A DNA stretch of 64,000 nucleotides from Polyangiaceae bacterium. GTDB lineage: Bacteria > Myxococcota_A > Polyangia > Polyangiales > Polyangiaceae. The stretch spans positions 5,564,914 through 5,628,913 of the forward strand of contig OZ245328.1 of NCBI GenBank assembly GCA_965225775.1, written 5' to 3'. The notes under the pieces are model-generated. The model was given only the letters and a program-made list of their open reading frames with translations. It did no database searches and was not told the origin of the DNA. How positions within the stretch are numbered: the first letter of the stretch is position 1; each line of letters begins with the position of its first letter. The position numbers and the translations under genes were made by a program. Shown in pieces: positions 3,469 through 63,570 of the stretch.

Positions 3469-3670
3469 AGGCCCGGGATCTCACCACCGATCGCCCGCTC
3501 GCACCGAGAAAATCGGCGAGCCGAACGCACAGATCAGGTTGCGACCGACGATGCCGACCGCCCGCGAGCAAGGCCTTGGTCAACCCATGAAAATCGCAAG
3601 GTTTCGGGACGCGCACGTTCACGGCGCGGGTCGGTTCGGCCGAAGAGCGTGCTAAGCCGTCGACTTCACG

Positions 3671-4540
3671 ATGAAAGGCCGACTTCGATACGACGGGTAC
3701 TTTTGGCGCAAGCTCGCGATGGTGGGCGCATCCAAGGGACCCAAGTGGCTCCTGCGCTACAGCCCGCCGTTCATCGGCCTCGCCGCCATGGCCCTCGTGC
3801 CCAAGGCTCGCCACGCGGTTCGCCGCAACCTCGAGCGCGCACGCGGCAAGCGCTCGGTCTGGCAAGACACGCTCGACATCGCTCGCACCTTCGGGAGCTA
3901 CGCTTCCTCTCTCGCCGAGGCGCTCGCCGCCGGCTCGAAGAACCAGGTCGGCTTCCAGAGCCACACCGTGGACGGCAAAGAAAACATGTATGCCGCACTC
4001 GACATGGAGCGCGGCGTGGTGGTCGCGAGCCTCCACTCGGGTGGGTGGGACGTGCTCGGCTCGCTCTTCGCCGATCGCATCAAGACCGAGTTCACCATCG
4101 TGATGGAGCCCGAGCGCGACGAAGGCGCTCGCCGCTTCCACGACGAGGTACGCGAGCGCGCGGGGGTCAAAGTGGCCCACGCCGGCGACGACCCGATGGC
4201 CGCGCTGCCGCTTTTGCGAGCACTGCGCGCGAAGGGAATCGTGGCCCTTTTGTGCGACCGCACGCCCCCGGGCATGAAAACGTTCGACGTGAAGCTCTTC
4301 GACGCGCCGGGAAAGATCCCCCAGGGACCGTTCCGGTTGGCGCAGGTCTCGGGCGCGCCCATCGTGCCGCTCTTCTGCGCGCGCTCGGGCTTCAAGAACT
4401 ACCACGTGGTCATCGGCGAGCCGATCCTGGTCGCCCGCAACGCCGACGCCGAGGCCTTCCAGAAGGCCGCGCAGACCGTAGCCGACCGCATGACCGAGTT
4501 CGTGCGCGCGTATCCGACTCAGTGGTTCCATTTCGAGTGA
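3671..4540 (+). CDS. lysophospholipid/lipid A biosynthesis acyltransferase family protein (LpxL/HtrB-like)
   Basis: 289-aa ORF, ATG at 3671; HX4D acyltransferase motif (LHSGGWD); N-terminal membrane anchor. Confidence 0.6.
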   Translation: MKGRLRYDGYFWRKLAMVGASKGPKWLLRYSPPFIGLAAMALVPKARHAVRRNLERARGKRSVWQDTLDIARTFGSYASSLAEALAAGSKNQVGFQSHTVDGKENMYAALDMERGVVVASLHSGGWDVLGSLFADRIKTEFTIVMEPERDEGARRFHDEVRERAGVKVAHAGDDPMAALPLLRALRAKGIVALLCDRTPPGMKTFDVKLFDAPGKIPQGPFRLAQVSGAPIVPLFCARSGFKNYHVVIGEPILVARNADAEAFQKAAQTVADRMTEFVRAYPTQWFHFE

Positions 4541-4563
4541 GGGGGAGAGAGCGGAGAGGGATG

Positions 4564-4707
4564 CCCCCACTCGCAGGTGCTCGGCTTCGCCTGCGCGCCT
4601 GCGGTCTCCCCCAAAATTTTCGCCGACGGCCTCTCGCTCCGCGACCAGCGGCGAAAGTAGGGGGAGACGCGAGAGCTCGCGGGGCGGCGCGGGGCACTCG
4701 ATGACTC
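4564..4707. repeat. intergenic repeat element copy A (about 144 bp) containing an internal inverted repeat (gtctcccccaaaattttcgcc ... ggcgaaagtagggggagac)
   Basis: Near-identical to 4777-4902 except an extra ~19 nt in the hairpin loop; lies in 460-bp gap between acyltransferase and epimerase genes. Confidence 0.7.
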
Positions 4708-4776
4708 GGGGGGCCTTCGGTGCGCGAGGCCCTCGGTGCGCGAGGCCCTTGAGAGCGAGGCCCTTGGTGCGCGAGG
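4708..4776. repeat. mini tandem repeat (ggtgcgcgaggccc x3-4) between the two large repeat copies
   Basis: Direct reading: cggtgcgcgaggccctcggtgcgcgaggcccttgagagcgaggcccttggtgcgcgaggcc. Confidence 0.6.
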
Positions 4777-4902
4777 CCCCCACTCGCAGGTGCTCGGCTT
4801 CGCCTGCGCGCCTGCGGTCTCCCCCAAAATTTTCGCCCAAAGCGGCGAAAATAGGGGGAGACGCGAGAGCTCGCGGGGCGGCGCGGGGCACTCGGTGACT
4901 CG
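4777..4902. repeat. intergenic repeat element copy B (about 126 bp) with near-perfect hairpin tctcccccaaaattttcgcc-caaagc-ggcgaaaatagggggaga
   Basis: Direct repeat of 4564-4707; same flanks (cccccactcgcaggtgctcggcttcgcctgcgcgcctgcgg ... gacgcgagagctcgcggggcggcgcggggcactcg). Confidence 0.7.
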
Positions 4903-5003
4903 CGATCCTCACCCTGGACTTCGCGTCGGGTTCGACTTCGTGGCTCGGCGAATTTTCGCCACGTCACGGGGCACTTTTCACGGGTCGACTCTATGGTCTC
5001 GAG

Positions 5004-6401
5004 ATGTCTCTCCCGGAACGTGCCACGGTCGTGCTCGCGGGTGGGAGCGGCTTCGTAGGCCAAGCTCTGGCCGCTCGTCTCTCCGAGCGCTTTCGCGTGG
5101 TCGGTCTCTCGCGCTCCGAGCGTGCACCGGACGAACACGTCGACGAGTGGCGTAAGGCCGACCTCTTCAATCTGCGAGACGCGGAGCGCGCCCTCGTAGG
5201 GGCGAAGTACGCGGTGTACCTCGTGCACAGCATGCTGCCCTCGGCGCGCCTCACGCAGGGCACGTTCGAGGACCTCGACCTCATTTGCGCGGACAACTTC
5301 GCGCGGGCCGCGAAAAACGCAGGCGTCGAGCAGATCGTGTTCCTCGGCGGTCTCTTGCCCACGCAACGCGACCTCTCGCCCCACCTCGCGAGCCGTGTCG
5401 AGGTCGAGAAGACACTCGGCCGCTACGGCGTGCCCGTCACCGTTCTGCGCGCGGGGCTCGTCCTCGGCGGAGGCGGTTCGTCGTTCGAGATGCTGGCGAG
5501 GCTCGTGCGTCGGCTCCCGTTCATGGTGGTGCCCGAGTGGACCAAAACCCTGACGCAGCCCGTGGGCGTAGAAGACGTGGTCGCGCTGCTCTCGTTCTCA
5601 GTCGGCAATGCGGCATGCTTCGGCGAGACGTACGACGTAGGAGCGCCCGAGCGCCTCGACTACCGGTCGCTCATGGCCATGTGCGCGGAGATGCTCGGAC
5701 TCTCGCGGCCCATGTTTTCGGTGCCATTTTTCACGCCGGGGCTCTCACGCCTGTGGGTCTCGCTCGTGACCGGCGCCCCGAAGGACCTGGTCGCGCCACT
5801 CGTGGAGAGCTTGCGCTACGAGATGCTCGCCAACGACTCACGCATCTTCGAGCTGGCCGGCCTCACGCCGACACCGCTTCGCGTGGCGCTGAAACGGGCC
5901 CTCGACGAGCACTCGGACACGCCTCGCGCCTACGCCAGCCCGACCCGAGAAACATCGAAAAAGACCGGTCAAAAGCGGCCCTCGTTCGTGCGCTCGGTGC
6001 AACGCATGACCTTGCCGAAGGACCACGACGCGCAGTGGGCCGCCGAAGAATACGTGCGCTGGCTGCCGCGTGCGCTGCGAGGTCTCGTGCGCGTCGACGT
6101 GGCCGAGAACCGGAGCTGCACGTTCTTCCTCGTGCTGTTCCACATTCCGCTCCTCGTGCTCACCTACGTGCCGGACCGGAGCACGCCCGATCGGCAGCTC
6201 TTCTTCGTGACCGGCGGAGTGCTCTCGCGCCCGGACTTCCGAGGTCGCTTCGAGCTACGCCAGGTGCTGGATCAACGCACGTTGATCACGGCCATCCACG
6301 ACTTCGCACCGAGGCTACCGTGGCTCGTGTACGTGGCCACGCAGGCGCAGTTTCATGCGTGGGTGATGGCGGCTTTTCGGCGGCACGTCGCGCGGGCTTG
6401 A
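5004..6401 (+). CDS. NAD(P)-binding epimerase/dehydratase (NmrA-like) fused to DUF2867-like C-terminal domain
   Basis: 465-aa ORF; Rossmann motif VVLAGGSGFVGQALAARL at N-terminus. Confidence 0.65.
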   Translation: MSLPERATVVLAGGSGFVGQALAARLSERFRVVGLSRSERAPDEHVDEWRKADLFNLRDAERALVGAKYAVYLVHSMLPSARLTQGTFEDLDLICADNFARAAKNAGVEQIVFLGGLLPTQRDLSPHLASRVEVEKTLGRYGVPVTVLRAGLVLGGGGSSFEMLARLVRRLPFMVVPEWTKTLTQPVGVEDVVALLSFSVGNAACFGETYDVGAPERLDYRSLMAMCAEMLGLSRPMFSVPFFTPGLSRLWVSLVTGAPKDLVAPLVESLRYEMLANDSRIFELAGLTPTPLRVALKRALDEHSDTPRAYASPTRETSKKTGQKRPSFVRSVQRMTLPKDHDAQWAAEEYVRWLPRALRGLVRVDVAENRSCTFFLVLFHIPLLVLTYVPDRSTPDRQLFFVTGGVLSRPDFRGRFELRQVLDQRTLITAIHDFAPRLPWLVYVATQAQFHAWVMAAFRRHVARA

Positions 6402-6402
6402 G

Positions 6403-6610
6403 ATGGGAGGGGAGAAGCGAGAAGGGGAGAAGCGAGAGGGAGCGGAGGAGAAGGGGTGCCCCCTCCCGCCCATGAAAGTGGAGCCCGGGTTCGACGGGGA
6501 GCCCGTGGATTTCTACGGTCGCCAGATTGAACGAGCATTGCTCCACTTTCCTGGTCGGCCTCCCCCAAATCGCGTGCTCGGGCTTCGCCCTCCGCGCGCT
6601 CAGGGGGAGG
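6403..6610. repeat. intergenic repeat region: tandem ggggagaagcgaga x2 plus element related to the 4.5-4.9 kb repeats (gtgctcgggcttcgccctccgcgcgc) with hairpin cctccccc...gggggagg
   Basis: Shares the gtgctcgg(g)cttcgcc(c)tgcgcgc core with repeats at 4564-4902; inverted repeat cctcccccaaatcgc...ctcagggggagg. Confidence 0.45.
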
Positions 6611-6650
6611 CTCGAGAAGCCCGTGGCTACGTGCCCGCGCCCGGTCGAGC

Positions 6651-8198
6651 TCAGTGCTTCATGTAGACGCTCTTCGCCGGAGCCACTTGGCCCGGCGTGA
6701 GCTCATGTACACCTCGACCGTTCACGAACTCCACGTCGGCAGGCTTTTCGCAGTCCCCCGCGCACGCGACCGCTCCGGCGGTGCTCGGTTTGGCGGCGGG
6801 CGCGTCCGAGTCGCCGGCGTCTTCACCGCCCGGCAATGCGGGGAGCTTGCTCTCGTCGAAGCCGGTGGGAACCAAGTAGATCTCGGTGGTCGGCGGGTAA
6901 AAGTCGGTCGACTCCTCCACCTTCTTGGTGCCGTCCGTGTACACGAGCGTGCGCGAGCGCTTGATGCGATAGCCCTTGATTCCGCGCTGTTTGATGACCA
7001 CGCGATTGGAGGGCAGATTGGCTTCTTCGGTGACCTTGCGCTTGTAGGCAAGCGTCGCGACCACGTCTCGGCCGAAGGTGACACGCGCGGGCTTGGTCTT
7101 GCCGAGCAGCTCTACGCGCAGCGTGTTCGGGCCGACCTTCGTGTGGACCACCACCGGGAAAGGATGCGGATTGCGCACCTTGAGGTCGACCGCGGGGTAC
7201 ACCACGGTGGAGTCGAGGCCCATCGGGATGTACGCGCTGGGACGAGAGTGCGGGAGACGCTCGAGCACGTCGAGCCCACCGAAGAAGACCGCCGCATGGA
7301 ACGTGGAGGCCACCTGGCAAGTGCCACCGCCCACGCCCTCGACCATCTCGCCCTTGAAGATTTCCCAGCTCTTCTGGAAGCCGTTCGCCTCGCTGCGCTC
7401 TCCCACGATCTCGTTGAAGCTCACGAGCTGACCGGGCGACAAGATGAGACCCTCGAGCTTTCCCGCGGCCACGTCGATGTTCTTCCCGCGACGCGCTTGG
7501 TCTCCGCCGCGCGAAAAATGCGTCTCGAACTCGCTCACCACGGTGGACACGTCCAGGCTGTCCACGAACGACTTGGACACGCGCGGCGGCACGGACACCG
7601 TCACGAAGGGAGCGACGTCTTTGCGATTGGCGAGCTGCGAGCGTGCGAGCGACTCCACTCCGGCGAGCGTCGCGTCCACGTCCACGAAGCTGCCGTTCTT
7701 CTCGGGAATGGTCGCGTGTTTGTCGAGGTCGAGCTTGGCCGAAACAGGCGCCACGTCGAGCTCGGTCTTCTTGGGCTCGAGGGCGGCGGCACCCTTGTCG
7801 CGGTCCACGAGGAGCACGAGTGGCACGTCGATCTCGCCGCGAGATGCCTCTCGTGCGGCCTCGGCGCGCTCCACGAGCGAGCCTTGGTGACCAATCGTAC
7901 CGAGCCGCGCCACGGTGGCCTCTTCGTCGACCGTGATGCCGAGCTCGGCGAACGTGGCCGAAAAGGCGTCGTTCCCGCCGAACTGCAGGGTGACCTTTCG
8001 CGACTCCAGCGCTTCTTTTCGCGCGTGAACCTCGGCGCGACCGTCGGTGCCCTTGGGCACGACCGTGCCGTCGACCCGAACCCCGGGAAGCACGGGCGTG
8101 TCCGGGAGCACGTACGGGCGCGCGGCAAAACACGTCCCCGCCACGGTGAGGGCGGTGAAGGACACGACCAGGAGCCTGAGTGCAGAGGGAGTGCGCAT
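6651..8198 (-). CDS. VanW family protein (secreted, peptidoglycan-binding + VanW domain)
   Basis: 515-aa ORF; signal peptide; VanW-like core GGGTCQVASTFHAAVFFGGL. Confidence 0.7.
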   Translation of the reverse strand: MRTPSALRLLVVSFTALTVAGTCFAARPYVLPDTPVLPGVRVDGTVVPKGTDGRAEVHARKEALESRKVTLQFGGNDAFSATFAELGITVDEEATVARLGTIGHQGSLVERAEAAREASRGEIDVPLVLLVDRDKGAAALEPKKTELDVAPVSAKLDLDKHATIPEKNGSFVDVDATLAGVESLARSQLANRKDVAPFVTVSVPPRVSKSFVDSLDVSTVVSEFETHFSRGGDQARRGKNIDVAAGKLEGLILSPGQLVSFNEIVGERSEANGFQKSWEIFKGEMVEGVGGGTCQVASTFHAAVFFGGLDVLERLPHSRPSAYIPMGLDSTVVYPAVDLKVRNPHPFPVVVHTKVGPNTLRVELLGKTKPARVTFGRDVVATLAYKRKVTEEANLPSNRVVIKQRGIKGYRIKRSRTLVYTDGTKKVEESTDFYPPTTEIYLVPTGFDESKLPALPGGEDAGDSDAPAAKPSTAGAVACAGDCEKPADVEFVNGRGVHELTPGQVAPAKSVYMKH

Positions 8199-63313: not shown

Positions 63314-63570
63314 AGAAGATCGCCAAATCCGACGCCCGGGAAGCCCTTACATGCCGTGGAAGAGCATCACCGGACTCGGGAGATGCTCGTACAGGCTCTG
63401 CAACCGCGACTCCGGACCTCCGGACATGCTCATGCAGAGGCTGCAAGAGCTTCTCCGAAGTCCGCTTACGCCCTTACAGAGACAGTCAGAGCCTATGTGG
63501 AGGTCCGGATATTCTCTTGCAGAGCCTGGAAGCGCTTCCCGGACCGGATATTCGACGTACGCAGCTTCAA

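Follow-up and report, generated by a model that had tools for sequence, protein, structure and literature searches.

A covarying family of small structured interspersed repeats in Polyangiaceae, three copies of which bracket an epimerase gene

In the 64,000-nt stretch analysed here, from the genome of an uncultured Polyangiaceae bacterium (contig OZ245328.1, positions 5,564,914 to 5,628,913; hereafter the window, G+C 66.7%), the 463-nt spacer between an LpxL-like acyltransferase gene (lpxL) and a YbjT/DUF2867-type epimerase gene holds two near-identical units, elements A and B, and a diverged relative, element C, lies on the other side of the epimerase gene. The three copies, all of them intergenic, bracket this one gene. 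We found that A, B and C belong to a family of small structured interspersed repeats that has not been described before, has so far been seen only in Polyangiaceae/Polyangia (Myxococcota), and whose copies are dispersed over unrelated loci, share a conserved structure and show a sharp 5' end at rearrangement junctions. We favour, with a probability of roughly 0.55, the reading that the family is a non-autonomous mobile or recombinogenic DNA element, which an enzyme encoded elsewhere would recognise in its hairpin form, probably as single-stranded DNA.

The dispersal of the family became evident from an exact 20-mer, 20 nt of the 45-nt core in the 5' half of the element, with which one genome per species was scanned. 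It matched at 22 loci, one of which is a chance match in Pyrobaculum. A previous reading of the window from sequence only (the sequence-only reading) had proposed a REP/MITE-like dispersed repeat family (repetitive extragenic palindromic sequences and miniature inverted-repeat transposable elements) or a structured RNA, which uniqueness of the unit to this locus would have contradicted; the unit is not unique, and the core 20-mer stands at 21 loci in metagenome-assembled genomes (MAGs) of 12 species assigned to Polyangiaceae, Polyangiales or Polyangia. Several MAGs have two to four matches each, on different contigs, and one further match (L025) is without covariance model support. As the family was gathered through this exact word, all counts of copies are lower bounds, and part of the conservation of the core is a product of ascertainment. 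A covariance model built from 22 copies (R1) located 32 copies in 294 kb, including five on one strand of the 4.6-kb contig L017, three in L019 and two in L010, and one MAG carried seven copies on three short contigs; the source genome and the MAGs were seen as pieces of 8-20 kb, and the gene calls in these loci are crude. Within the 64 kb of the window blastn found no further copy, and a broader model (R2), run with filters off, found exactly A, B and C.

The elements are about 85-120 nt long, and 126-160 nt in the lineage of the window (overall roughly 90-160 nt). They start with (GG)GTTGCCCCC and end with GGGGGAGAC, and their parts follow in a fixed order: (GG)GTTGCCCCCACT, stem I (CGCAGGTGC/GCGCCTGCG) around the variable hairpin 1, GTCTCCCCCAA, the variable hairpin 2 and the terminal GGGGGAGAC, which pairs with GTCTCCCCC to form stem II. 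The two termini, GTTGCCCCC and GTCTCCCCC as the reverse complement of the end, match at 7 of 9 positions and make up a short, imperfect inverted repeat. Each arm, about 35-45 nt long, is built as GTGC-UC-[variable tip]-U(G/C)C-GCGC and folds as an imperfect hairpin in each of the 31 distinct copies. In 22 of the 32 copies the inner motif of stem I (GTGCTC-[tip]-TSCGCGC) recurs in hairpin 2, which gives the element two hairpins that are irregular, resemble each other and are directly oriented. Four full copies, from the lineage of the window and that of the related contig L006, agree throughout the 45-nt core, and other genomes have it in near-identical form.

The structure is conserved beyond the sequence. 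Among the 31 distinct copies, 97% of the cells hold standard pairs, and in 9 of the 21 pairs both partners have changed (43 cells). Because the alignment had been fitted to the model, these counts lean toward the structure, but compensatory changes are still visible in a raw MAFFT alignment. None of 500 shuffles reached the observed covariation values, and sliding the pairing partners by one to three columns cut pairing to 40-62%. Stem I covaries between subfamilies (CGCAGGTGC/GCGCCTGCG vs CGCGGGTCC/GGGCCCGCG), and in the subfamily of element C stem I is of another kind (CTCGCCCG...GGTCGG). Both hairpins have tips that vary in sequence and length yet always pair (GGC/GCC, GCGC/GCGC, GGCCC/GGGCC, CCGGCC/GGCCGG, GGCTTGC/GCAAGCC). 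Every copy folded alone adopts the common shape, with T-N-C triloops in 45 of the 70 terminal loops.

At the window locus, unit A extends over 4562-4708 and unit B over 4775-4902. The near-identity of these duplicated units, claimed by the sequence-only reading, was borne out by two direct repeats, 4553-4624/4766-4837 (72 nt, 94%) and 4647-4708/4841-4902 (62 nt, 97%), and by blastn of 4564-4708 against 4777-4902 (84% over 145 columns), where the shortfall comes from one 19-nt loop indel plus two or three substitutions; the extra nucleotides of about this number that had been noticed in the loop of A are thus the main difference between the copies. The mini-tandem between the units and the inverted repeat in each (GTCTCCCCCAAAATTTTCGCC / GGCGAAAATAGGGGGAGAC, in both A and B) were likewise found again. 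The units begin slightly earlier than the bounds first given, and in this lineage a purine-rich 5' tract (4541-4563; 6402-6458) is part of them. The stop codon of lpxL directly abuts the tract of element A.

The prediction of the RNA fold, which the earlier reading had called for, gave plus-strand energies of -79.9 kcal/mol for A and -73.7 kcal/mol for B, well beyond dinucleotide shuffles (z = -3.5 and -4.9), and the covariation described above backs a conserved structure. The long stem-loop then proposed can form, but for B it is only one of two iso-energetic folds (-73.7 kcal/mol, vs -73.4 kcal/mol for the two-arm fold of the family). For A the two are identical, and the family fold is the minimum free energy structure (-80.5 kcal/mol). 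The single long hairpin exists only in the lineage of the window, where a non-homologous 3' extension pairs with the 5' half; by folding, the G-run of the 3' extension of A is able to pair with the 5' C-run, closing the structure.

Element C, formerly suspected to be a diverged third relative, is a true member, recognised by a covariance model built without it (31.1 bits at 6455-6613); by blastn it has only words of 14-16 nt in common with A and B (E = 3-6). A long hairpin (6466-6484/6540-6558) takes the place of stem I, and stem II (GCCTCCCCC/GGGGGAGGC, 6558-6566/6603-6611) carries a compensatory change from T:A to C:G. The hairpin 2 of C (CCTCCCCCAAATCGCGTGCTCGGGCTTCGCCCTCCGCGCGCTCAGGGGGAGG) is the commonest hairpin-2 type in the family. 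The element contains inverted repeats, and its fold reaches -75 kcal/mol (z = -4.0). The tandem that had been noted near 6.4 kb corresponds to GGGGAGAAGCGAGA at 6408-6456 (period 15, 3.3 copies by Tandem Repeats Finder, TRF). The positions of these features are collected in Table 1.

Table 1. Features of the window locus and of related loci, with the support for each (positions without a locus name are those of the window).
Feature	Position	Strand	Support or remarks
Lipid A biosynthesis (LpxL-like) acyltransferase gene, flanking	3671..4540	+	Pfam PF03279, E=2e-23; same gene upstream in L006
Purine-rich G-run tract GGGGGAGAGAGCGGAGAGGGATG, lineage-specific 5' module of element A	4541..4563	+	Equivalent tracts before both L006 copies
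Element A core	4562..4668	+	Model R1 88.7 bits, E=5.5e-15; regex dissection
Element A, 5' tail TGCCCCCACT; stem I; hairpin 1 GGCTTCGCC inside stem I	stem I 4572-4580/4595-4603; hairpin 1 4583-4591		
Element A, stem II enclosing hairpin 2 (long-loop type)	stem II 4604-4612/4660-4668; hairpin 2 4613-4659		
3' extension of A GCGAGAGCTCGCGGGGCGGCGCGGGGCACTCGATGACTCG, lineage-specific	4669..4708	+	After both window copies and in L001, L006; not in other family members
16-nt mini-tandem GGCCCTCGGTGCGCGA x4.3 between A and B	4712..4779	+	TRF score 94, period 16, 83% matches
Element B core	4775..4862	+	Model R1 86.7 bits, E=1.4e-14
Element B, stem I and stem II; otherwise like A except short hairpin-2 loop (CAAAGC)	stem I 4785-4793/4808-4816; stem II 4817-4825/4854-4862		
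3' extension of B	4863..4902	+	Tail kept without B core in L001 and L006 (alignments)
YbjT/DUF2867-type NAD(P)-binding epimerase-like gene, bracketed by elements	5004..6401	+	Pfam PF13460, PF01370; homologs; protein identical to P0125 of a 9.89-Mb contig (NCBI/ENA)
5' module of element C: purine-rich tract, AGGGGAGAAGCGAGA in tandem (x3.3)	6402..6458	+	TRF
Element C, diverged member, CTCGCCCG...GGTCGG subfamily	6455..6613	+	Model R1 (not trained on C) 31.1 bits, E about 7e-4 to 9e-4
rpsA (ribosomal protein S1) 3'-end partial duplicates, three lengths	L010:7385-7771, L017:2915-3052, L019:1114-1222		
DUF559 module	L016:2732-3303, L017:1027-1599 and 2588-2783, L019:2275-2848, L010:6179-6597, L006:3339-3929		

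The genes beside the copies are unrelated housekeeping genes, among them uvrC, dnaE, rne, rpsA, sodA, a tRNA synthetase gene, fab genes, transporter genes and hsdM. With the crude gene calls, the gene on the 5' side is co-oriented with the element in 14 cases and opposite in 9, and this mixed orientation argues against a gene-specific cis-acting RNA. Neighbouring copies are mostly on the same strand (3/3 in the window, 2/2 in L006 and 5/5 in L017). In L016 and L019 an element stands 20-30 nt behind an intrinsic terminator, so close that no room is left for a promoter of its own. Four truncated genes end exactly at the 5' terminus of an element, |GTTGCCCCC: three 3' fragments of rpsA, each opposite to the element and beginning at amino acid 445 (L010), about 540 (L017) and about 567 (L019), and one DUF559 gene (L017). 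In the MAG of L017 an intact rpsA is present as well (L016), followed 74 nt downstream by an element. The 5' flanks of the elements end in GG in 8 of 12 cases, and in TTGG in four, which does not decide on a fixed target tetra- or pentanucleotide.

It is on these observations that the favoured reading rests: a mobile or recombinogenic element is suggested by copies at unrelated loci and in both orientations, some directly behind terminators, by the truncation of genes at one precise end and the breaks of synteny at copies, and by the shared strand of neighbouring copies together with two similar direct hairpins without target duplication. We infer mobility itself, a single-stranded DNA intermediate and a trans-acting enzyme from this pattern, whose logic would be that of hairpin-ended derivatives of IS200/IS605 and, more loosely, that of REP elements.

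The only gene family that recurs beside copies, at five loci, is DUF559, which has a Vsr-like nuclease fold. As an observation in its own right, a module of about 575 bp, which carries a small gene for a DUF559 (Vsr-like) endonuclease, recurs both inside single Polyangiaceae MAGs and from one MAG to another at 74-90% nucleotide identity, and some of its copies are truncated. In L026 (2526-7984), three paralogous genes stand in tandem (74-80% nucleotide identity), and an element lies exactly between the first and the second of them.

The history of the window locus was followed in related contigs reached through orthologs of the epimerase gene. In L006, a JGI contig, the lpxL-epimerase order is kept and a long-loop, A-type unit follows lpxL, where only the 3' tail of B is left; a complete short-loop, B-type unit lies there downstream of the stop codon of the epimerase gene, vs upstream in the window, and synteny with the window ends after that unit. 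In L001 (96% protein identity) A is present, the mini-tandem is another one and of B there is just the tail; the short-read contigs L001, L007 and L008 end inside units. The site of the mini-tandem is hypervariable, with other sequence in L001 and L006. The central hairpin reads AAAATTTTCGCC/GGCGAAAAT in the window and L001 vs AATTTTTTCGCC/GGCGAAAAAA in L006, a compensatory difference, and both copies of a genome carry the same change even though the A and B loop types predate the split of the lineages; this points to homogenisation between copies or to a shared constraint. In our reading A and B are an old tandem pair; both loop types exist in L006, and the B core was lost in L001 and in L006, with different end points. 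Replication slippage would have built the 16-nt mini-array between A and B, which looks like slippage of the start of the 3' extension. A and B are probably co-transcribed in the lpxL-epimerase transcript, because A starts at the stop codon of lpxL without a terminator, and they would place very stable hairpins in the intercistronic RNA. These may affect the stability of the transcript, presumably as a side effect and not as the reason for the existence of the element.

In more distant relatives (82-89%) the epimerase gene lies in another neighbourhood and there is no element. Homology of the gene to these relatives, L002-L005, extends from 31 nt ahead of the ATG precisely to the stop codon (4973-6401 of the window), and its neighbours there are a DUF975 gene and the PhoU-pst operon. 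Because homology is limited to the gene and the neighbours differ, the epimerase gene is differently placed in the lineage of the window, where elements bracket it. Apart from this, two independent Logan assemblies of different lineages, L001 (1-30) and L007 (1-40), start with ...CCAAGGGGTGGGAAGT joined to CCAA(AA/TT)TTTTCGCC. The whole 5' half of element A is replaced in both, with the breakpoint within the C-run of stem II, while L006 and L008 have a normal 5' half; the sequence at the left junction of the replacement had no match anywhere else in the DNA compared.

Three further observations concern the window. The only two purine-rich tracts in the 64 kb (4535-4563 and 6400-6458) each begin at a stop codon and lead 5' into an element, and both hold several G3-G5 runs, which are possible G-quadruplex formers; L006 has equivalent tracts, and the epimerase reading frame there reads into the tract. 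A third AATTTTCGCC motif, found elsewhere in the window only in the hairpin-2 arms, lies at 4949-4960, about 45 nt before the epimerase start; it is kept in L001 and modified in L006, does not covary with the hairpins, and could represent either an operator or what is left of an older copy. A 43-nt tandem repeat at 63360-63464 (2.5 copies, 68% matches) is unrelated to the elements.

Among known systems, REP/REPIN elements and the PATEs described below come closest to the family in kind. REP and REPIN elements are mobilised by RAYT (REP-associated tyrosine transposase; Y1 HUH) enzymes (Bertels and Rainey, PMC3116915, PMC3337134; Ton-Hoang et al., PMC3479197). Our elements resemble them as short, GC-rich, imperfect palindromes that are extragenic, often just past stop codons, clustered and devoid of coding capacity, and also in their long-term conservation above the flanks and in the likely recognition of a hairpin. 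They differ in several respects. The palindrome of a REP is headed at one end by the tetranucleotide GTAG or CGTC (PMC3733652), whereas the heads here are GTTG(CCCCC) and GTCT(CCCCC), with no GTAG or CGTC beside either arm; a REPIN consists of two inverted REPs forming one long hairpin (PMC3337134), whereas the arms are direct in the 22 copies mentioned above; the tips are hypervariable with compensatory change, in contrast to the one homogeneous sequence of REPs; and REPs reach tens to hundreds of copies per genome, while the number observed here, a lower bound, is low, and none of the copies was seen with a RAYT nearby.

PATEs (palindrome-associated transposable elements) are hairpin-ended miniature derivatives of IS200/IS605-family transposons. 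Like them, our family has two similar irregular subterminal hairpins on the same strand and in direct orientation, no target-site duplication, a sharp end and a tendency of neighbouring copies to share a strand. No TnpA or TnpB gene or remnant was found near the copies, however, no conserved target tetranucleotide was established, and the 7/9 match of the termini is not a PATE feature. The likeness is architectural only and not one of homology; a related survey is available (PMC6006769). MITE-like intergenic repeats such as ERIC/IRU, RU-1/2/3, Correia/NEMIS and pneumococcal BOX (Delihas, PMC2229807, PMC3184786) are similar in being intergenic or intercistronic, 100-170 nt long and modular, with long stem-loops, co-transcription with neighbours and an occasional intragenic position. 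In those repeats, however, the terminal inverted repeats are clear, a target-site duplication or a TA target is usual, and the sequence is near-uniform within a genome, whereas here the terminal inverted repeat is 9 nt long and imperfect, there is no target-site duplication and the internal hairpins differ between copies.

The description as a dispersed family with a conserved structure thus stands, but strict REP, REPIN and MITE definitions each fail in at least one defining feature, and "REP/MITE-like" is right only as a description of kind. No description of a REP/MITE/REPIN-type or DUF559-associated repeat in myxobacteria was found in the searchable literature. We regard the elements as a new family within the small structured interspersed repeats of bacteria, unusual in its near-invariant core, hypervariable covarying tips and low apparent copy number.

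Several candidates were rejected. CRISPR, already dismissed in the sequence-only reading, is incompatible with only two long units (126 and 145 nt), with their unequal spacing (213 and 194 nt from start to start for the two halves), with the 16-nt tandem between them and with the absence of cas genes. Coding potential was discarded because the hairpin inserts differ by non-multiples of three (9-27 nt; 19 nt in the indel that separates A from B) and because GC content alone leaves every frame open; a six-frame translation of the element against a protein database gave one spurious reading frame only, on the L017 contig. A pattern for the window-specific hairpin had no match in a first genome scan because the hairpin-2 core differs between lineages. 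The family can be described by CCCCCWCTCGC-N(30-70)-GGTCTCCCCC-N(15-60)-GGGGGAGAC. Two metagenome contig scans also gave no match, to which little weight can be given as the collection is incomplete (the JGI contig L006 holds the second, generalised pattern). Plasmids, phages and viral contigs had no match.

Several results weigh against a mobile element. Within about 4 kb of the copies, neither a transposase nor a RAYT recurs; the 67 open reading frames within 1.5 kb of copies included no RAYT among the 25 best of 62 Pfam families, and 230 kb of flanks held no larger shared unit or transposase. Target-site duplications, which the earlier reading had proposed to look for, were absent from the 12 junction pairs read. 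No clean pair of an empty and a filled site was found, and transposition itself was not seen. The copy number observed is low, with three copies in 64 kb, all at one locus. The junction of the DUF559 gene in L017 has 11/13 nt of microhomology and could be the product of illegitimate recombination rather than of cleavage by an enzyme. In 23 of 31 copies the fold of the sense strand is slightly the better one (p=0.006), which suits an RNA. Finally, identity between copies that occupy orthologous or paralogous sites is 96-100%, against 57-89% in the flanks, and behind rpsA the copy has changed less than the coding sequence of rpsA next to it (83%). Selfish insertions in decay are normally less conserved than this, the identity of the core and the covarying stems included, and the pattern fits a function selected by the host equally well.

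A functional structured RNA family, whose copies would be kept by host selection and not by transposition, is the main alternative and a serious one, though less probable than a mobile element. Two variants can be conceived: a cis element in 3' untranslated or intercistronic regions, where the upstream mRNA would be protected or processed through two stable hairpins, or a small RNA that would act on Shine-Dalgarno-like sequences through its unpaired C-run (GCCCCCAC) and its CUCCCCC/GGGGGAG stem. The covariation in all helices, the identical 45-nt core in two lineages, the conservation of orthologous copies beyond flanks and the rpsA coding sequence, and the fold z-scores (down to -3.5 to -4.9) are all favourable to an RNA, as is the fact that every gene within 80 nt of a copy is upstream and co-oriented (window A and C, both L006 copies, L016, L023, L028 and L029). 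The general orientation to neighbours is nevertheless mixed, copies interrupt or truncate genes, and some sit right behind an intrinsic terminator, where promoter space is missing.

Further points against an RNA are that the window locus itself has no U-tract, that neither an intrinsic terminator nor a sigma-70 promoter-like site was found there, and that triloops dominate, rather than GNRA or UNCG tetraloops. A cmscan of 3500-7500 against Rfam 15 returned no family even at E<=10, only the irrelevant sub-threshold matches mir-679 and sR51, and no tRNA or tmRNA was found. The strand asymmetry discriminates weakly between RNA and DNA and in a mixed way, because the invariant U.G pair of stem I is inherited while the C.A mismatches in stem II of some copies (L012, L015 and L017a) would form wobble pairs only on the opposite strand. 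With the lineage-specific RNA motifs of the Rfam type the family shares conserved blocks joined by covarying helices and the restriction to one bacterial family; it differs from them in being multi-copy, in both orientations, gene-truncating and sometimes placed behind terminators, as well as in the lack of an Rfam match.

It is also conceivable, though we consider it rather unlikely, that the elements are a new functional class of structured nucleic acid that is not selfish. They would then be copies of a non-coding RNA with a near-invariant 45-nt core or, alternatively, modules recognised by a new hairpin-specific enzyme system that would reshuffle genes. Such reshuffling would be seen in the bracketed epimerase gene and in the gene fragments that end at the terminus of an element, and the DUF559 (Vsr-like) nuclease would be the candidate partner of the system.

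Much less probable is an attachment site for a recombinase, attC-like as in integrons or att-like, with copies marking the boundaries of cassettes such as the epimerase gene. The bracketing of this gene in the window and L006, the limits of its homology to distant relatives, the several copies that begin right at a stop codon in the orientation of the gene, and the conserved ends around a variable structured middle, which resemble the logic of attC, all speak for such a site. On direct reading, however, the ends (GTTGCCC... and ...GGGGGAGAC) lack the core sites RYYYAAC / GTTRRRY (R''/R') of attC, by which an integron attC proper was rejected; no integrase was found in the flanks and no integrase or recombinase near any copy, the neighbours are large housekeeping genes and not promoterless cassettes, and the orientation is mixed. 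That intergenic DNA was simply duplicated in tandem at this place, with hairpins formed by chance and no family behind them, could be argued from the presence of copies at only this locus within the 64 kb, but is refuted by the core in 12 other species at unrelated loci, the significant covariation and the second site in L006, and is hardly tenable.

Polyangiaceae myxobacteria have some of the largest genomes among bacteria. For these organisms, the family represents a marker that explains contig breaks and synteny breakpoints in MAGs, and a test case of hairpin repeats that are conserved while the tips of their stems turn over. With the covariance model at hand, it is also a starting point toward the enzyme that recognises the element. 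The copies between the lpxL-like and epimerase genes are candidate modulators of mRNA stability, and the interest of the element would be considerably higher if a new nuclease or transposase proved to act on it, or if it proved to be an RNA.

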